64,000 bases of DNA from Tortispora ganteri (lineage: Eukaryota), in assembly GCA_003707115.1 (NCBI GenBank), contig PPNB01000002.1, positions 434,001-498,000 of the forward strand, given 5' to 3'. The position numbers and the translations under genes are program-made. Positions 3,209 to 63,300 of the stretch are shown in pieces; the first letter of the stretch is position 1, and each line of letters opens with the position of its first letter. The notes beneath the pieces are model-generated. The model ran no database searches. It had not been told where the DNA came from and saw only the letters and a program-made list of their open reading frames with translations.

Positions 3209-3538
3209 ATGGATCAAACTGAAGCAGAAGTAAGTACAATTATCTTTGTGTGTTTTTATCTTTGGCTTAAACACTGTTATCATTTGTAAGATATAGTATT
3301 CTAACAACAGTCGCTCTGGTCGAGCTCTTCTAGTTCGCCATACCGTCCACTTGTTGCGGTCTCTGATCACCCTCGTCTAGCGCTATTGTTCATGGGCATC
3401 GGACTTATCTCTTTAGTATTATTTGCCTTAAATGACAGTAAATATTTTTCTAGAGCTGTCACTTATGCTTCTCTTTCGGCTGCGTCGTTTAGCGTGGGCC
3501 TTGTGTACCTTTTATGCGCCGCTAACGTTTATGTCTAA
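3209..3538 (+). CDS. OST5: Oligosaccharyltransferase subunit 5 (OST5/TMEM258 family), 82 aa, two exons: 3209-3229 and 3311-3538
   Basis: Intron 3230-3310 (GTAAGT...TCTAAC AACAG). Spliced protein MDQTEAESLWSSSSSSPYRPLVAVSDHPRLALLFMGIGLISLVLF...FSVGLVYLLCAANVYV has two TM helices and the family's C-terminal VYV. Not in the ORF track. Confidence 0.88.
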
Positions 3539-26230: not shown

Positions 26231-26513
26231 TAAATATAAGAAAAAGTCGCATTTGGGGAGGCGTATACTTATAATCACGCGGATCGCTGCGAAGTAAGGC
26301 GATCGATGACTAAATTAATTATTTGTTTAAACTTTTCATCTGCGGATCTTTATGCGGTTTAATGCCCGACACCAGACGCCGCGGATTAGAATCGGGAAAT
26401 CAGAATCCGAAAAGTTTAATTCTATTAGATAGGAGATGTTTATGCTGAGCGCTGTGAGAGAGATCTGAACGACGTTTCATTGACGTGTAGATGGCATTAA
26501 CATGTAAACGGCG

Positions 26514-26615
26514 TTTATCTAGATTCATTGTGTATAAATCGTTCATCTAGATTCATTGTATAAAGTGCTTATCTAGATTCATTGCATATATAGCATTTAT
26601 CTAGATTCAGTGTGT
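26514..26615. repeat. Tandem repeat, about 27 bp x4, with palindromic ATCTAGAT core (ATCTAGATTCA)
   Basis: ATCTAGATTCA at 26517, 26545, 26571 and 26599. Confidence 0.9.
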
Positions 26616-26840
26616 AGTAATGTAATAATAACAATGTAACATGTATCTAATGATAGTACTGTATCTAACCAAGAAAGAAAAGTAGCGGGTATTGTACAGT
26701 GTATATTTTATAACAGTTGATAATTGTAAATATCTTGATTAAAATTTATTGTTTTGTTCTGCTCTTTCGTGAGGTGGCAAACAGAGATCAAATTTGACGA
26801 TGTTGTATATGAAATAGCTATAAAGTGTCCCAATTTCCTC

Positions 26841-27516
26841 ATGAACAATAGTCTTGAACTCTTACCCTCTTCTATGAACCCGAAATTAGTTGTATTTGAT
26901 CTCGATTATACACTATGGCGTAAGTTAAATTTTTAATCTAAAATATTTGATATTAACAACAAAGCTGTAAGTATAGATATTTTTGTTTATAATGGAACGT
27001 GATCTAACAAACAGTTATGGTGTGACACTCATATTGACCCACCAATCAAAGGAATCAACAATGGCAGCGCCGTACAAGGCAGGCATGGCGTGATTGCTAA
27101 ATTCTACCCTGAAGTACCAGAGGTTCTGAAATCGCTGAAAGCTAGTGGTATAAAAATTGTAGCTGCATCACGCACACATACTCCAGAAACTGCCCGCCAG
27201 ATGCTACGCGAGCTTCGCGTAGACGGCCAGCGCGCTCTCGATTATTTCGATGCACTCGAGTTCGGCACTGGTAAGTATCTCGTTTTTTGCACTGTTCATT
27301 TGCTCGAACTAACAACAGGCAGGCTCGAAAATATCACACTTTGAACGAATTAAAAAGAAATTCGATGTCGATTACTCACAAATGATCTTCTACGACGACG
27401 AGGAACGCAACAGGGACGTCCAGAGACAATTAGGTGTGCTCTTCGTTTATGTGCGTAACGGAGTAGACAAAATGCTAATCGCTGATTCATTTGAGAAATG
27501 GCGAACTAAGCAATAA
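26841..27516 (+). CDS. MDP1: Magnesium-dependent phosphatase 1 (HAD class IIIC), four exons: 26841-26919, 26965-26966, 27015-27270, 27323-27516
   Basis: The spliced protein has [36 protein letters not shown] and MIFYDDEERN, the MDP-1 motifs. All three introns are GTAAGT...(C/T)TAAC...AG. Confidence 0.88.
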
Positions 27517-27694: not shown

Positions 27695-30600
27695 ATGAAC
27701 GGATCACAGTCGAGCAACCCGATTAGAACGTACCCATATACTCAGGTCCTCCCCTACATTATAGAGCCCGAACCAACATCAGCCGCCCTCCTGGACACAA
27801 TTATTGATGGCCTCTATGTAGCGCTCAAAGCTGGCGATTATGATGGCGACCCAGCGCTCTTCTGGCTTAAAGAACTTAACACCTGGCTCACTTTGAAGTA
27901 CGACCTACCTATACAGAAACGAGCTGACCTTCTGCGTGTCCTCTATGACGTAATTCAGGTCCATGGTCTCGCCACCACTGTATCAGACCGCTACTGTTCC
28001 TTATTCAACACCCTCTTTCACCACCGCGATCTCCTAGAAAACACAGACCTCGTTCTGGACCATACTCATCTGCTCAAGGAATACATAAACCATGCGTTCC
28101 CTTCACTACATGCGTACATACCGCCATACGAAAGAGATTTGCCCTCCATCACCCGTGTCGTTATGAACGCTCGCCATTTCTTTCCCGATCGATCTAGACA
28201 GGACATCCTTGAAGCAGTAACTACGCGGTTCTCTACTAACAAGCAGGTCACTGCAACTGCTTCTGTTGGTATCCTTGTTACTTTTTTCCCCACGCGTCCT
28301 TCATCATCATTCCCTCCTGAAACGTTCCTCCCCACTTTCTTTCATATCTGGACATTGTGTGCCAGATCGTACCAAAGCGATTTCCTCTTTCTCGACTTCA
28401 TGTCCCGCCTCGCCCAGGAATGTCTTACTGAACAGTCAGTACCTATGAGTCACTCTGGAATATTCACCCAGCACCAGTCTGCTTTTATAGTCTCCGCATG
28501 CTTACGTGTCCTAGAGATTCCCGTAGGTTCCTCGCGATCCCCATATGCCAACACCGGCCTGCCCGTGATCCTCAAAGATAACAAAAAGAACAAAACTATA
28601 CGTGCAGTTTCCAGATGGTTTATTTATAGCATCGTTCCTGCTGCTGATTCTACCTCTTCGACTGTCCTCGACGCGCTCGAAGATTTCCTGGGCGCTTTCA
28701 AGGCTTTTTTCCATCCTTCAAACGCAGGAAGTTGGAACAGAGCAATAGGTATACTTCTCTGCTCTCTAGTCCAATTCTTTGTATCTCGCTGGAACCGTGA
28801 AAATTCAGGTGATCTCAATGTCCCTGAAAGCCGCAGAATTTCACTACACATGAAGGAAAGATTCGTTGATATCCTCAGTATACCCATTTTTTTCGCAATA
28901 TACTCCAAGAATTCCACTACCACTAACCTAGCTCAAGGTGCTCTGCGAGGTATAATATATTTATCCCCAGCGAAAGTGTTGACACAAGTGCTGCAACAGG
29001 CGTACCCTGCTCTTCAAGGCCAACTCGAAACACATAGAACTAATACTGCAATCAGGGCATTATCAATTGCAGCTAGAACATTCTCTCGAACTCCTACACT
29101 AAGAAACCATATAACCACGATACTATCACTCATACTTCCCGGTATAGATGCCAATGATCTCACCAAATCTACGCAATCCCTGCAGCTGTTTGAGCATTTC
29201 GCGAACAATGTGCCGTTTATAAATGTCTCAGGAGAACATACCGACGCCTCGCTTGCAATGAACTGGATCTCTCAGGAAGTCATGGAACTAACTGAGTTCG
29301 ATTTCTCAACTTCCAACGGAGAAGTCAAACCTGAGCTGACCGCTGAAGAAAACTCTATGGTTCTCGAATCATCCACCGCTGCATTCGATGAGATAGTTAC
29401 GTCTTTGCTGGATAGAATGTTTGTGCTACTTGAAAATATGCCTGACACGCGTCTGACATCCAGTTCTGCCTCTCCTGAACATAAATTTATTCAGACTATT
29501 CCCACTGCCTTTATGGCAATATTCTCAGCGCTCTCGCCTGAAATGTACGAGACAGTCTTGAACAAGCTATTCCACTTTGTTTCAGATCATGCCATATACG
29601 AAGCTAGTACTCCTATGGCATACCTTTGCACTGCAATTGCGCGGATTATGCCTCAAAAAGCGCTTGATCTATTTGTTCCTGCACTTATTATTAATATTAA
29701 GGCCGAAATACAAATGTCTGCCGGAACCTCTAGATCAAACGAAATTATGCCTTCAGACAGAGTACTAGCGTGGAACCTTTTTATTTTGAAGACTGTTATC
29801 ATAGATTCTGGCACAGCCTTAACTCATTTATGCGAGGACCTATTTGACGTAATGCGCGTTGTTCGGAGAAACTGCAAAGGGTATATTGCGAAGCTGAACC
29901 AGGAGATGCTGCATAATGTGCTATACGCACTCTCTGCGACTTATGTCATTCATCCTTCTGTCGGAAGAGTCGTTGACTTCTCCATTGACGCATGGGGACG
30001 AAAGGTTGACCCACAGAACCTGAAGGTCAACTGGTACACGCCGACTCCAGAAGCAATCGCTTTAGCTACTGCTTTATTTAAGGAGCACGTCGATTGGTCC
30101 CAAAAAGATCTCGAAGAAAGTATGAATGAGGAAAGCGCGAATTCAAAAGACGCAATTGACAAAATGGCTATAACGCTCGGATATCTGCTGCGGGCATATT
30201 CTGGAACTGCACAGATCCAAGATGCTGAAGGGTTCATGCATTGCGACACAGATTCAAACTCTTACGACTCGGATCAGAATATTCTGGACGGCAGCTACAA
30301 AAGCTTTCTACCCGCGCCTCCTAGTGAATTTCGTATGTCTACTCGCAGCGGTTACTACTTCGACTCGCACCCAGAAGACAAAGCGCGACATGTAATCCAA
30401 CAAACGAGAACTACTGTTGGTCGCTTGTTACATTCGCTATGCGAGTTTTGTAAACAACATGAGATCGAAGATATCAGCATTATGAAAGCGTTGATCTCTG
30501 CTATCGAAGTGTACCTCACAGATGCAAGAATCGATAGGAGCTCAAAAACGCTAGAAATGGTCGGAAACAGTTACTCCTCCCGCGTCAAACCATACCAGAT

Positions 30601-33367
30601 CCCAGGATTGAAGAAAGATTATCCAGAAAATTTGCTAGTTCTTAGAGCATATCTATACTTTCTAAGGAGACTGAGGTACGCATACGGCGCTAGAGTGTGT
30701 ACGAGTGCCGACAGGGTTCTGCTAGAAGACTTAATATATCTGGCAGTCTCGTCATACTCAGAAGTTCGTATACAAGCGCAGCATTCATTAGAAAAAACTA
30801 GCCAGGTGTTTTTTGATATCAAACCGGAAATAGCAAGACAGGCCTCAAAAGTGCTAATTGAATCTGCTGATACAATTGGCCATGTCAGCAATGCCAAGCT
30901 TAAAGGTGCGATTTACGTGCTTCAAACTGGCGCGTTTCAGCGAGCTCTTATTCGAACTGCGACGCCTTTGCCAAAATGTATATATGCTCTGGTAGCTTCT
31001 GGCTCGGTTTCCTCGCACGAACTTGCTACTATTGAAGCAGCGAAGAGTCTCATTAACAAAATCACAGAAAATTACAGGCTTCCCATAGCCAGACTCTCTT
31101 TATTATCCGATAATATTGACTTTATCAGCCCAAAAAGCCGCAACATCGTGAACGAAGTAAAGCGGTTGCAGGATACACGCCAGAGAAAGCTGGAGCTGCT
31201 GAATAAAGTGCACGATGAAGTTGAGAGAATTATCGTTGAACTCTTCAATAAAGATTTCACTAATTGGAGCATGAAACTAGTTTGTGCGAACATGTTAAAT
31301 TCAGCGTTTATCCATCCAGAGAAAACGTTGTCGCTAGAGTCGTTTCAAGTTGTTCTTACTGGTGTAATCGACTCTCACCCTGAAATTCGACTTGTTTTTA
31401 TGCATGTTTTCATGAAACACGTTTCTTTGTTGTTCATGCGTGCTGCGACTGGTTACGATTATACCAAAATGTTGTACGAACGTGTATACATATGCAAGAG
31501 GCAGGCAGTAGAGTTTAGTGCGACCGAATATTCTGAGAAAGAGGCTCAGCTATTGAATAGTCTTGCCGATCCAGATCGTCAATTCGTGTTATCGCCGGAA
31601 TTTGTGCCCGGATGGCTGGTCTGGCCTACTCATCTTTTATACGAGCGCAGGTACACAGAAGAGGACTCAGAGCTGTCCCTGAAGGCTGCGGAAATGGCAC
31701 ACCTGGAATTGTGTAAAGAAGTCATAACGTTTGAATGGCTGACAGCGTTGGGCAGTCTCACATGTGAGGAACCGTCACAGATTGAGGGCGATTACTTTAA
31801 TATGCTCTATGTTTTCCTGGAAATCCATCTGTTCACCATATACGGCAAAGGATACACTTCTTTAAGCAAATTGGATATCCTCAAATTTATGAATAATATA
31901 TATGGAGATGGAAAGGACAAGAACCAAAGTCGAGGATGTGCAGAACTGTGCGGCGGAATTGCTGGATCAATGAGATGGCAGAAGAAACCGAACCAGGAGA
32001 TGTACCTCAATTTAATACTGCAGTTTTTTTCGAAGGTGTACGACGCAGATTTGCAGCCTGAAAACTGCTTATACTGGAACAGACTGATATCATTTCTTAC
32101 ATCTGAACAAGACCTTGTGCGATTCGAGCCTCTTGTGAAGAAGATCAAAAGTTTCAGACTAGACAGAAATTCCAACACAGCATTCCTTGACGCTTCGAGA
32201 CTAGGATTTGTTCACAGAATGTACAGTGGGCTCAGCTGGACTACAACTGTAGAGGAAAACACTCTGCAGAACATGTTAGATAACCTTGACTATCCTTACA
32301 AGGCTGTGCGCGAATCTATTGGAAATGTTTTGAGCGCTATATTCAGAAACAGATACCACGAAGGACACCCTTCTCTAGCGAAACTCATAGAAGCCAACTC
32401 CAGTAAAGGTTCTTTAGGACTTGGTGGATACTATGCATCTGATGGTCTTACTGACTGTATCTGTGAAGCTTTCAAAAAACTCAGCAAATGGCGTTTGTCG
32501 TCAGAAGGTCAACCTGCTGCAACTAGTCCTTATTATTGTGCTAGCAAGACCGTTCTTATATGGCTACATGATTGGCTTTCATACCCCAGTGGTGCGATTA
32601 TTGCCCCAATTGTACCCTCGGTGATAATTCCTGAGCTTTTGTATCTTCTTGATATAAAAGAAGATCACGAATTGATCACGCTAGCAGAGCAGTGTATTGA
32701 GCAGATCAGCAACATTCCGTACGAGGAACAGGATATATTGAAGTTCATTAATTCGGCAATAAATGCATGCGACAGCAACCGTCCTTGGAGACATAGACTT
32801 ATGGCTATGAAGGTTGTGCAGGTTGTTTTTTTCCGAAACTTGTTTCTGTTGGCACTCGAAGACAAAATACGTATCCTGCATCGAGTTGTTGGCTTACTGT
32901 TTGATCATCAAGCTGAGGTGCAGCAAGCTGTCTCGGCCACTGTTTCGGGCATCATAAGATGTCTGCCTGCAAGTGCGCAAGAGAGTGAGATCAGTAATTT
33001 GCAGAAGAAGTTTGTGAATATTCTGAAAAAGGAGAAGCTGCCCGCACGGAATTCTACAAGTTCAGCTACTTCATTGCCAGAATACCAGTCTGTTTTCAAT
33101 AGAAGACACGCTGCTGTCCTAGGAATCGGTGCTATAGTTTCTGCGTTCCCATACGAGTCCCCTCCTCCACGATGGGTTCCTAATCTTTTGTCTGTACTGG
33201 CAGCATATGCCAGTGGAAATCCCGGAAATATAGGAAAGAGCGCCAAGCTGGTACTTGGAGACTTCAAGAAAGCACGACAAGACACATGGAGTAAAGACAT
33301 GAAGATATTCACGTTAGAGCAGCTAGAAGACCTTGAAGGTGTTTTCTGGAAGAGTTATTTTGCATGA
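27695..33367 (+). CDS. BLM10: Proteasome activator Blm10/PA200
   Basis: 1890 aa HEAT-like protein; RTYPY, FFHPSNAGSW, LPGIDANDLTKS, RHAAVLGIGAIVSAFPY..PPRW, C-terminal FWKSYFA (HbYX-type tail). Confidence 0.95.
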   Translation: MNGSQSSNPIRTYPYTQVLPYIIEPEPTSAALLDTIIDGLYVALKAGDYDGDPALFWLKELNTWLTLKYDLPIQKRADLLRVLYDVIQVHGLATTVSDRYCSLFNTLFHHRDLLENTDLVLDHTHLLKEYINHAFPSLHAYIPPYERDLPSITRVVMNARHFFPDRSRQDILEAVTTRFSTNKQVTATASVGILVTFFPTRPSSSFPPETFLPTFFHIWTLCARSYQSDFLFLDFMSRLAQECLTEQSVPMSHSGIFTQHQSAFIVSACLRVLEIPVGSSRSPYANTGLPVILKDNKKNKTIRAVSRWFIYSIVPAADSTSSTVLDALEDFLGAFKAFFHPSNAGSWNRAIGILLCSLVQFFVSRWNRENSGDLNVPESRRISLHMKERFVDILSIPIFFAIYSKNSTTTNLAQGALRGIIYLSPAKVLTQVLQQAYPALQGQLETHRTNTAIRALSIAARTFSRTPTLRNHITTILSLILPGIDANDLTKSTQSLQLFEHFANNVPFINVSGEHTDASLAMNWISQEVMELTEFDFSTSNGEVKPELTAEENSMVLESSTAAFDEIVTSLLDRMFVLLENMPDTRLTSSSASPEHKFIQTIPTAFMAIFSALSPEMYETVLNKLFHFVSDHAIYEASTPMAYLCTAIARIMPQKALDLFVPALIINIKAEIQMSAGTSRSNEIMPSDRVLAWNLFILKTVIIDSGTALTHLCEDLFDVMRVVRRNCKGYIAKLNQEMLHNVLYALSATYVIHPSVGRVVDFSIDAWGRKVDPQNLKVNWYTPTPEAIALATALFKEHVDWSQKDLEESMNEESANSKDAIDKMAITLGYLLRAYSGTAQIQDAEGFMHCDTDSNSYDSDQNILDGSYKSFLPAPPSEFRMSTRSGYYFDSHPEDKARHVIQQTRTTVGRLLHSLCEFCKQHEIEDISIMKALISAIEVYLTDARIDRSSKTLEMVGNSYSSRVKPYQIPGLKKDYPENLLVLRAYLYFLRRLRYAYGARVCTSADRVLLEDLIYLAVSSYSEVRIQAQHSLEKTSQVFFDIKPEIARQASKVLIESADTIGHVSNAKLKGAIYVLQTGAFQRALIRTATPLPKCIYALVASGSVSSHELATIEAAKSLINKITENYRLPIARLSLLSDNIDFISPKSRNIVNEVKRLQDTRQRKLELLNKVHDEVERIIVELFNKDFTNWSMKLVCANMLNSAFIHPEKTLSLESFQVVLTGVIDSHPEIRLVFMHVFMKHVSLLFMRAATGYDYTKMLYERVYICKRQAVEFSATEYSEKEAQLLNSLADPDRQFVLSPEFVPGWLVWPTHLLYERRYTEEDSELSLKAAEMAHLELCKEVITFEWLTALGSLTCEEPSQIEGDYFNMLYVFLEIHLFTIYGKGYTSLSKLDILKFMNNIYGDGKDKNQSRGCAELCGGIAGSMRWQKKPNQEMYLNLILQFFSKVYDADLQPENCLYWNRLISFLTSEQDLVRFEPLVKKIKSFRLDRNSNTAFLDASRLGFVHRMYSGLSWTTTVEENTLQNMLDNLDYPYKAVRESIGNVLSAIFRNRYHEGHPSLAKLIEANSSKGSLGLGGYYASDGLTDCICEAFKKLSKWRLSSEGQPAATSPYYCASKTVLIWLHDWLSYPSGAIIAPIVPSVIIPELLYLLDIKEDHELITLAEQCIEQISNIPYEEQDILKFINSAINACDSNRPWRHRLMAMKVVQVVFFRNLFLLALEDKIRILHRVVGLLFDHQAEVQQAVSATVSGIIRCLPASAQESEISNLQKKFVNILKKEKLPARNSTSSATSLPEYQSVFNRRHAAVLGIGAIVSAFPYESPPPRWVPNLLSVLAAYASGNPGNIGKSAKLVLGDFKKARQDTWSKDMKIFTLEQLEDLEGVFWKSYFA

Positions 33368-55850: not shown

Positions 55851-56569
55851 GGTACAGGAAAACTCGTGACTGAGTGTGACTGACCTATGTTGTTCGCAGC
55901 TTTTATTCCTCTGTGCATTTGCACATCCACTTACACACTTATACATTCAGACACCACACACACACAAATACGAAATGAACATACGAATGATGATCTTGAT
56001 TGATTTTTCTTTGCTTTTGTTCTACGAAAAACATAATATGGGGTCCCTGTTTTCGCTGGGTTACGTTTGCGAAATAGAGACAATTTTTGCTATGATCTTG
56101 TACACTACTTGTGACCATTACATGTACGTCACGAAACAGAAGAAAAAAACTTTTTATAATGATATATTCACACATATGACTCGCATTAACGTAGTTTGCT
56201 AGTCCAATGAGTACCTAATACATACCTAATGATACCGAAAAGTACAAAAACCCCAATGAGTCCATTATGCGGAAGAGCGATGAGGATACTCAATGCTCTA
56301 AGTCTGCGCCGTAAACGGTCACGACACCCGAAATTCTCGAAGAAGCGTGACCTTAACAATTTTCTTTTATACTGCCGGCTTGCAGAGATGCGTTTTCGTC
56401 TCAGTTACAATGTACATACGATTCAATCCAAAACTAGCGAAAGAACGATAATAGCCTATTGTGTTAGATTTATAAACCGTTAGTGAAAACAAAACAACTT
56501 ACTATAAACACAATATACTGCTTAACTTACTATGGGGGACACATTCCGATCCACTGATTCACCAACTGC

Positions 56570-60389: not shown

Positions 60390-63300
60390 ATGCTTGAAGG
60401 ATTAGTAGCATCGATCTTGAATAACGTGTTGGTAAGTTTGATCGCAATTGTGCAAATGACCTCAGTGTGGCTAACATAACTTTAGGGCGCCTACGTCAAG
60501 AACTTCGACCCAAAACTTCTCAACATTGGAATATGGGGCGGAGATGTGTCGTTGAAGAGACTTGAGTTAAAAAAGGAGGCTCTAGATGAATTAAGACTAC
60601 CTCTAGATGTTGTTGAGGGTTATCTCGGCTCTCTTACGCTCCAGATACCCTGGTCGAGTCTCAAGACGAAACCTGTACGCATCAACATTAAGGATGTATA
60701 TTTGCTTGCTCTACCTAGAGTTAACTTGCCATATGACGCAGAAGAAGAAGAGAAGCGTGCACAAAAGTTGAAACTTGACAAGCTGAATACGTATGAACTT
60801 TTGCATGCACAGCAAGATCATTCTGCTGACATGTCAAAGGAAGAGCAACGCAAAAACGAAAGCTTTTTACAGTCTTTAACAAACAAAATTATTGACAATT
60901 TGCAGGTGTCTATTGAGAATATTCATATCAGATACGAAGATGACATATCCGCGCCAGACCATCCTTTCTCAATTGGTGTTTCCCTGTCAGAATTATCAGC
61001 TGTAACTACTGACCGCAATTGGATCCCGAACACTGCACAGACACTCACAGATATTACTTACAAACTCTCAAAACTAAAGCATTTAAGCATATATTGGAAC
61101 ACAGATACGCAGTTTATAAAACGCGGTTCCTTTGAAGAATTCACTTCCAATTTCGCCTCTCTCATCAGCTCAGATTCCAACGCTCCTGAGGGATTAGATT
61201 ATATCCTCAAACCCGTCTCAGGAGTAGCTAGAATCATTCTTGATAAATCAAATGGCACAAATCGTCCCAAAGCACGAGTAAGACTCTTGTTCGAAGACAT
61301 CAGTATTGTCCTCGACGAATACCAGTACAGGGACAGTCTTTTGCTAGCTGATTTGTTCCATGTATTCATGAGAACCCAAAAATTCCGCAAACTCCGACCA
61401 AAAGCTTCCAAAACTGAAGATCCTAAGGCGTGGTTTGCGTATGCTGCTAAAGCCGTGTATAATGAAATCCACGCGCGAAATGAAGTTTGGACCTGGGAGT
61501 ATATGCAAGCTCGACGAGAAAAACGAAAGACGTACGTAAAACTATTTCAAGGCAAACTCCTTGAAAATTTAACTTCTGAAGACTCGGTTAAATTAGATCA
61601 GTTGGAGTTTGAACTTTCATATGATGACATTCGACTCTACAGAACTCTTGCAAGAAATCAGCTTAAACAACAACAAATTTCTATAAAACCGACAGAACAA
61701 AAGAAACAAACTGCTGCAACCTCTTGGTCTTCTTGGCTCTGGGGATCAAGTTCTAGCGAAACTCCTGGACAGAAGTCTGCCGATTCTGAAGCAGGTCAAA
61801 TCGTTGTGGGCGATACCGTTATTACTGAAGAGCAACGGAAAGAATTTTATGAAGCAATCGAATGGGATGAAAGAAAGGCTATGGCTGACATTGAACATAT
61901 TCCAAGAGATTATGTACGCTATCAGCTACATTTGGAGCTTACTGCCGGAGGATTTACCTTATTAGCCGACCCACATAATGCCAGACAGGAAGTTGCCTCA
62001 ATATCCTTTGATACTTTCAAATCTACAATATTAGTTCGCCCCGATTCCTTTTTGTTTGGAATGAGTTTAAAGGAGTTTACTATTATGGATGGAACTACAC
62101 CAAATTCTCTATATTCGAAGATGGTTCGGTTGAACAAGTCTTATGAATCTGGAACGTCGTCTCACGAGGTCGAATCTCGTTTATCTTCTGTCCGTGAAAC
62201 TGCCTATTTTGATGAAGAAGAGGACGAAGAAGACGTGAAAGATCCATTAGATGAGGATGACTTACTGGAAAATGAACCTTTCTTTCAATTCTCCTTAGAG
62301 CAAAACCCTCTCGATGAGTTATCTGATTCTAAAATTGCTGCAAAAATCCGGAGCGTCGAACTGTTTTATAATCCCCATTTTGTTGAGGAAATTGTGCACT
62401 TTTTCAAGCCCCCAAAGAAGCATATGGAGACCATTGGAGCTCTCTTACATGCTGCTTCTGCTACAGTAGAAGGCATTACTAACCAGACAAGAGCAGGTCT
62501 CGAATATGCTTTACAAGAACATAAAACTGTAAGTGCAAAACTGGATATCCAAGCTCCGGTGATATATATTCCTCAGGATATCACAGACAAAAACTCTTCT
62601 TGTTTAGTATTCAATATTGGCCATGTTTATGTTGGAAGCTCGTTAGCGAATAAAGAAACATTGAAAACTATTCAGGCTAAACAAAACAAGCAATATAATG
62701 AACAAGATTGGAAGCTGCTGGAAGAGGCAATGTACGATCGGTTTAATTTACTGCTGAATTCTACAGAAATTCTCATTGCCCCTAGCCACGAACTTGCTAT
62801 TGCTAGCCTGTCAGAATTGCAGTCTAAATACAGTTTGCTGGATAAAATATCTATTAATTTGCTTTTGGCAGTTTCAATTATGCCATCTGCTGCCAACCTC
62901 ACTCGCGTTAAGATGTCCGCGAACCTTCCTGAACTGAAAGTAAGATTCTCGGATTGGAAGTATCATGCCCTAATGGAAATTATCAACGCATCAATTCCTC
63001 AGTTTGCTGATGAAAGTACTCCAAACGAATTACTCGCGGTTACAGAGGCTAACACGCCCAATGAACTTATTGATGATGATTTACAAACACCTTTTGACTT
63101 TGCTACGAATGATTCCACTGCGCTTGGTGATGCTATGCTTGCAAAACTACGTGGGGAAGACGTCTCAAGTGAAGTTGTTCCTGAAAGCAATGCCATTGTA
63201 TCGTCAGCCGACTTATACAAGCAAGGACAATTTGAATTTAGTTTCATTGTTGAGAAAGTGTCATGCATTGTTTCTCGTGAGTCTTTTGCTCCTGAAGAGA

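Follow-up and report, generated by a model that had tools for sequence, protein, structure and literature searches.

The window, by which we mean the whole 64,000-nucleotide stretch of Tortispora ganteri DNA analysed here, carries on its + strand a gene that we assign from its sequence to the MDP1-type HAD phosphatases, with phosphatase activity being predicted. The translation of positions 27015–27269 matches the Pfam family Acid_PPase (PF12689) over profile positions 17–105 at 72.4 bits, and the frame running from 27313 matches it over the contiguous profile positions 106–169 at 70.3 bits (cut-off 27 in each case). Among solved structures, human and mouse MDP-1 chains in the PDB match the protein segment encoded by exon 3 (2wm8_A, 1u7o_A; E = 3e-12, 1e-11). 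Immediately downstream lies a proteasome-activator gene, PSME4/BLM10 (27695–33367), which is intron-less, encodes 1,890 residues and has the Pfam domains HEAT_PSME4_mid, PSME4_C and BLM10_N. The adjacency and order of MDP1 and BLM10 are the same in Tortispora caseinolytica, where BLM10 is 89% identical.

MDP1 is very probably a four-exon gene whose second exon is the dinucleotide CT, set between two introns that would be removed separately. In this model, exon 1 (26874–26919) begins with the ATG at 26874, in agreement with the start of the T. caseinolytica protein P0002, and comprises 15 codons, including HAD motif I (DLDYT), plus the C of a proline codon (phase 1). Intron 1 (26920–26964; 45 nt) starts with GTAAGT, has a branch-like TTAAC at 26953–26957 and ends in the AG at 26963–26964. 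The micro-exon CT (26965–26966) supplies the second and third bases of the proline codon, and intron 2 (26967–27014; 48 nt) follows with GTAAGT, CTAAC at 27004–27008 and a CAG acceptor (AG at 27013–27014). Exon 3 (27015–27270; 256 nt, ending in phase 1) encodes LWCDTH to EFGTG and includes motif II (AASRT), intron 3 (27271–27322; 52 nt) runs from GTAAGT through CTAAC to CAGGCAG, and exon 4 (27323–27516) carries motifs III (GSK) and IV (YDDE) and the stop codon TAA at 27514–27516. Spliced with CT kept, the four exons give 498 nt and 165 residues, with DLDYT at residue 9, AASRT at 66, GSK at 102 and YDDE at 125; these correspond to HAD motifs I–IV (DxDxT, S/T, K and DD), all of which are then present.

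An earlier note on this DNA had described two introns flanking nothing but CT, and every coordinate of that layout is borne out in the sequence. TGG C is followed by GTAAGT at 26920 and an AG, then by CT, then by a second GTAAGT at 26967 and an AG, and finally by TTA TGG TGT GAC from 27015. The presumed branch A lies 8 nt from the acceptor G in intron 1 and 7 nt from it in intron 2. The frame of exon 1 ends at a TAA six codons into intron 1, and an in-frame TGA at 27000–27002 in intron 2 closes the frame upstream of 27015, so that retention of intron 2 would truncate the protein. The same note had stated that removal of 26920–27014 in one piece breaks the frame, and taking out these 95 nt does shift it, leaving an 18-residue product. 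Its main claim, that the CT exon is required for the conserved N-terminal MDP1 motif, likewise withstood a systematic enumeration of splice paths, which used all GT/GC donors (24 sites) and AG acceptors (12 sites) from exon 1 to 27130. Twelve one-intron paths are open, and each loses at least one of DxDxT and DTH; a single one of the 252 open two-intron paths gives D.D.T.W..W.DTH, namely 26920–26964 / CT / 26967–27014. Consensus donors at both introns occur in only two paths, the second of which also uses CT, with a far-downstream acceptor.

Family conservation points the same way. Among 158 stored homologous proteins, 117 carry D.D.T.W (the set includes seven near-duplicate cluster members), and the residue after this Trp is Pro in 95 of the 117, which agrees with the earlier suggestion that the Pro built from C plus CT fits the family; the others have Asp (12), Leu (4), Ser (2) or Arg, Gly, Asn or His (1 each). 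The spacing W-x-x-W-x-D-T-H is kept in 108 of the 117. When scored with a family HMM trained on 77 full-length homologs, the model that keeps CT comes first with 226.7 bits, ahead of alternatives with larger ‘exons’ (215.1 and 214.3 bits), the public T. caseinolytica model (194.4 bits), single-intron alternatives (179.2 and 172.5 bits) and the CT-skipped product (28.9 bits). The two bases are thus needed both for the frame and for the conserved Pro, with no ordinary alternative among the enumerated paths. We also considered and rejected non-canonical single-intron solutions that leave AG, GG or GT behind, which need AA-AG or GT-AC borders; Ascomycota are described as having neither a U12 spliceosome nor U12 introns in the account given in PMC5499181. 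In the protein collections, we found no full-length, correctly spliced MDP1 of this species or a close relative, and a word-based search of longer proteins with exon 3 returned one N-terminally truncated match only.

How ordinary are the introns around CT? For reference, we scanned the window for GTRWGT...YTAAC...AG and then checked frames and Pfam domains, which gave five other introns. These lie in VPS13 (60432–60485; 54 nt, 11 nt from branch A to acceptor G), a TMEM170-like gene (donor 18286, − strand; 60 nt, 7 nt), a SPRY/LisH/CTLH gene (donor 6325, − strand; 58 nt, 7 nt), Ost5 (3230–3310; 81 nt, 6 nt) and, as intron 3, MDP1 itself (10 nt). All five combine GTAAGT with CTAAC, at lengths of 52–81 nt and branch-to-acceptor distances of 6–11 nt. 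Both introns flanking CT have canonical GT...AG borders, with GTAAGT twice, and place a branch motif at the usual distance within a length in keeping with the others. As counterpoints, they are the shortest of the seven introns surveyed (45 and 48 nt vs 52–81 nt), intron 1 has the weaker branch motif TTAAC where the other introns have CTAAC, and an AG 6 nt past the branch A is passed over in intron 3 of MDP1, which indicates that very short distances are not always used. We estimated by composition-preserving shuffling of the gap interior how often such a layout arises by chance. AG-NN-GTRWGT inside the 95-nt gap, with both sub-introns at least 35 nt long, appeared in 202 of 300,000 shuffles, and only seven shuffles also had the Pro-restoring C and a branch-like motif. 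The likelihood of a chance look-alike is low.

Intron 3 of MDP1 ends in CTAACAACAGGCAG, with a first AG at 27317–27318, 6 nt past the branch A, and a second AG 4 nt further on, at 27321–27322. Use of the first AG shifts the frame; in our model the second must be used, and P0002 reads GTGSKISHF over this junction, as it would with the second AG. The Ost5 intron appears to use an AG at the 6-nt distance that is skipped in MDP1 intron 3. Either the minimum distance depends on context or some MDP1 transcripts are mis-spliced.

Comparison with T. caseinolytica sheds light on the history of the two bases. An exhaustive HMMER search found a sole close match, P0002 (ODV90189.1, T. caseinolytica NRRL Y-17796; 91% identity over exon 3), the rest being at most 59% identical. 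MDP1 as a whole is 89% identical between the two species, the same value as for BLM10. P0002 reads DLDYTLW-LSDTNSTA-LWCDTH, with eight residues where a Pro is expected, and is 2,067 residues long, with MDP1 fused to the downstream BLM10/PSME4. Back-translated with codon degeneracy, the insert LSDTNSTA fits window positions 26943–26966 with mismatches at 5 of 24 positions; this segment covers the 3′ end of intron 1 together with CT and translates as IFDINNKA. Equally good fits occur at 39 of 127,952 window positions, and a comparison with the 3′ end of intron 2 gives 15 mismatches in 24. Because the insert fits the end of intron 1 together with CT, the counterpart of CT would be exon sequence in T. 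caseinolytica. The fit suggests that the counterpart of AG CT directly precedes LW in the modelled T. caseinolytica mRNA and that CT is ancestral exon sequence.

Two readings of the T. caseinolytica gene are compatible with these data. In one, there is a single intron, for which the predictor took an AG 21 nt too early, and intron 2 would then be a recent gain in the lineage of the window. In the other, the same micro-exon is present and the predictor made a 23-nt exon instead. At least one intron at the phase-1 site is implied for T. caseinolytica, and the public P0002 model is wrong here under either reading. Together, the fusion and the insert suggest that the intron structure misled the annotation. 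The earlier note had anticipated that gene finders overlook such exons, as the public model, with its eight-residue insert and its fusion to the next gene, appears to exemplify. T. caseinolytica is intron-rich for a yeast, and budding-yeast introns in general have standardised signals and short branch-to-acceptor distances, at least as summarised in PMC5499181.

Metagenome contigs were scanned with a pattern in which the exon-1 motif leads into C and the beginning of an intron, and this brought up two further loci, L001 and L002; a scan of genome contigs with the motif-plus-intron pattern gave no matches. L001 has the layout seen in the window: TGG C, a 69-nt intron (GTAAGT...CTGAC...TTAG), CG, a 57-nt intron (GTATGT...CTAAG...TTAG) and then GTA TGG TGC GAT ACC CAC. 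Splicing via the 2-nt exon CG gives W-P-V-W-C-D-T-H. None of 10 open one-intron paths at L001 keeps both motifs, and 2 of 406 open two-intron paths give the motif, one by way of CG and the other by way of TT, for which the GTTGCT donor is poor; by chance, 26 of 300,000 shuffles produce such a layout. The L001 protein is 44% identical to that of the window and shows no special affinity to Tortispora over other fungi, and alignment detected no similarity between the L001 introns and those of the window. What the two loci have in common is therefore the design: AG, C plus any base, and GT. The same design is thus present in an ortholog with diverged introns, L001 being the only further locus of this kind.

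Other relatives have a simpler structure at this position. In the Brettanomyces-like L002 (58% identity to B. naardenensis), a single ordinary intron occupies the phase-1 site of intron 1, and its acceptor AG runs on into CG TGC TGG. The ORF-called relatives P0174 and P0175 begin inside the intron at the L002 site and read ...A-CWCDTH, as expected for AG/CN. The Lipomyces tetrasporus model P0028 reads W-RK...NLLTA-CWCDTH, with 22 extra residues from read-through; from the protein we infer a 66-nt in-frame intron, which would run from C/GTAAG to ...ACAG/CN. Intron phases across fungal MDP1 genes, a comparison that the earlier note had proposed, therefore place an intron at the phase-1 site in L001 and L002 as well and, by extension from the protein, in Lipomyces. 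The position of intron 1 is on this evidence old in budding yeasts. The position of intron 2 (phase 0, 2 nt downstream of the intron 1 site) is found, among the loci compared, only in the window and in L001. Several other proteins (P0020, P0026 and P0031, together with P0174 and P0175) start with M-L-T-P or a similar sequence just ahead of the conserved motif, and these starts are ORF calls made from within an intron, at ATG-CTAAC. It seems that fungal genes commonly carry introns in or close to the MDP1 motif and that gene models often break there.

Frame logic, signal quality, family conservation and the second locus together make the CT exon well supported, and competing explanations have to be weighed against this combination. 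If the gene were broken, whether by a recent 2-nt loss that made it a pseudogene or by an assembly error, the 95 nt would be one intron and AG-CT-GTAAGT a look-alike that arose by chance. The single ordinary intron at this site in L002, the read-through protein models that imply a single intron in Lipomyces and the T. caseinolytica model, which is compatible with one intron or two, are all in keeping with that idea. We nevertheless consider a broken gene unlikely: signals this good are found in 7 of 300,000 shuffles, L001 has the same design independently, CT aligns with exon sequence of T. caseinolytica, the other exons are intact and give four HAD motifs, and identity to T. caseinolytica is 89%, like that of the neighbouring gene. 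It is barely credible, in turn, that one canonical intron is removed to give an in-frame but shortened protein, for example with an intron that runs from 26920 to 27051 or from 26892 to 27014 (the latter with loss of the DxDxT nucleophile). Such paths are indeed open reading frames, but each of the 12 removes a motif that 108 of 117 homologs retain, and the shortened proteins score 47–54 bits below the CT model on the family HMM. They also require a poor donor (GTATTT or GTTGTA) or the skipping of an AG 7 nt past a perfect CTAAC, and the stretch they delete is conserved as coding in T. caseinolytica.

A further proposal concerns mechanism rather than gene structure. The earlier note is supported on the need for a 2-nt exon and on gene finders missing it, but its description of the arrangement as ‘stwintron-like’ does not hold, as all six splice signals are intact in genomic DNA and the 2 nt stay in the predicted mRNA. 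As described in PMC7138796, a stwintron has an internal intron that breaks up one of the splice elements (donor, branch or acceptor) of an external intron, and the two come out in a set order, together clearing one contiguous stretch. In the window, the donor, branch and acceptor elements are all contiguous, with none interrupted; CT is retained, and contiguous removal of the 95 nt shifts the frame. Nor does the site resemble a ratchet point of recursive splicing, given the two coding bases between AG and GT. The stwintrons described from Lipomyces (PMC7138796) are similar in that two close U2 units are removed in consecutive reactions in early-branching yeasts, but they differ from the window, where both introns are complete and 2 nt remain. 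We regard it as very improbable that the two introns form a true stwintron or recursive unit with a fixed order of removal that serves as a regulated on/off switch. The strictly ordered splicing and the off-switch by skipping that the note also put forward find no support in the sequence either. The introns may well be too close for simultaneous spliceosome assembly, and skipping of CT would truncate the product, as such a switch would require. By contrast, neither intron splits an element of the other, either order of removal leads to the same mRNA, the 2 nt are retained, unlike in a stwintron or at a zero-length ratchet point, and the fold of 26900–27034 is not beyond that of shuffles. Predicted RNA folding of this segment was no more stable than that of shuffled sequences (z = −0.42; 59 of 200 shuffles as good), and an RNA structure that brings the exons together is accordingly unsupported.

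We propose instead that the 45-nt and 48-nt introns are ordinary U2-type introns, that intron definition picks out each of them as a unit, and that each is spliced out in a reaction of its own. Joining exon 1, which ends in C, to CT and exon 3 would place Trp-Pro-Leu-Trp right after DxDxT; joining the outer donor to the outer acceptor, with CT skipped, would give the 18-residue product. The putative branch A of intron 1 (26956) lies 11 nt upstream of the intron 2 donor (26967). At this spacing two spliceosomes could probably not assemble together, and splicing of the two introns would have to be successive. The sequence forces no particular order: after either first step, the remaining intron has a full donor, branch and acceptor. 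Both introns are presumably spliced in the cell, constitutively and sequentially. A pair of 45–48-nt introns around 2 nt could serve as a compact natural substrate for questions of spliceosome proximity and removal order.

Where intron 2 came from is a separate matter. It appears to be an extra intron that isolates two bases beside the old position of intron 1. An origin by duplication of intron 1 was considered and rejected, as the alignment score was reached by 2,581 of 3,000 shuffles for the window and by 1,590 of 3,000 for L001; similarity among the window introns is confined to the shared CTAAC-AG consensus. A tentative possibility, which we think somewhat doubtful, is that intron 2 is a young gain that postdates the split from T. 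caseinolytica and that a distant fungus, represented by L001, gained an intron independently at the same codon boundary. If so, the site would be a recurrent target of intron insertion and a 2-nt exon would have been tolerated at once, next to an ancient intron 2 nt away and in a subphylum known for intron loss. Alternatively, the 2-nt exon could be old, shared by descent between the lineages of the window and L001 and long kept, which would also be notable. Comparing relatives that have one intron here with forms that have two provides a small-scale test of intron gain beside a pre-existing intron.

Exons this short have precedents. A long-read annotation of Coprinopsis cinerea reports 13 exons of 1 nt, 57 of 2 nt and 27 of 3 nt (PMC12230235). 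These resemble the MDP1 case in being nuclear spliceosomal 2-nt exons in a fungus (57 exons in 50 genes), and their omission is reported to produce premature stops and automatic annotation to miss them (PMC12230235). The Coprinopsis examples, however, are transcript-supported and come from an intron-rich basidiomycete mushroom, whereas the exon described here is predicted from genomic sequence and lies in a budding-yeast MDP1 gene. CYP621A P450 genes of Fusarium contain a 1-nt exon supported by SRA reads (PMC12940212). As in the window, the exons on either side are in phases that do not match, the tiny exon sits between canonical introns inside a conserved motif, and the design is conserved across orthologs; the differences are in size (1 nt vs 2 nt), lineage (Pezizomycotina) and gene (a P450), according to the same source (PMC12940212). 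The Fusarium authors propose rescue after base loss, whereas the comparison with T. caseinolytica suggests that in the window original exon bases were cut off by an extra intron. Exons of 2–5 bp are known in Arabidopsis, Drosophila and humans, as stated in PMC12940212. In Arabidopsis APC11, an ultra-short exon, there a constitutive one of 1 nt, likewise lies between two U2 introns and is mis-annotated in databases, but in a plant gene with longer introns and with proof from reporter constructs (PMC4674806).

Under the phrases tried, and within the literature collection searched, we found no published 2-nt exon in a yeast or in MDP1. Among the matches listed for micro-exons and yeast taxa none combined both, and searches on Tortispora introns returned general genome papers only. 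Ultra-short exons are already known in fungi, and the CT of MDP1 is probably an early example from the budding-yeast subphylum. It would provide a motif-anchored 2-nt exon in a subphylum with few, standardised introns and the best-understood splicing machinery. It would also account for the wrong public model of T. caseinolytica, with its eight-residue insert and BLM10 fusion. More generally, genes of such structure can be lost or mangled by yeast annotation pipelines.

Several other features of the window deserve mention. A 28-nt tandem repeat (26511–26616; 3.9 copies, 76% matches) precedes the MDP1 start codon by about 260 nt; it could be an element of the promoter or simply a minisatellite. 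The VPS13 gene begins at 60390 with a first exon of 14 codons and runs off the window; its intron was confirmed by the Pfam match, as exon 2 picks up VPS13_N from profile position 15, in keeping with a 14-residue exon 1. Finally, the − strand has two GTAAGT donors 28 nt apart, at 56530 and 56502. Two CTAAC motifs and a single AG come after them, beyond which no clear coding frame opens; the two donors could serve a UTR intron as alternatives or have arisen by chance.
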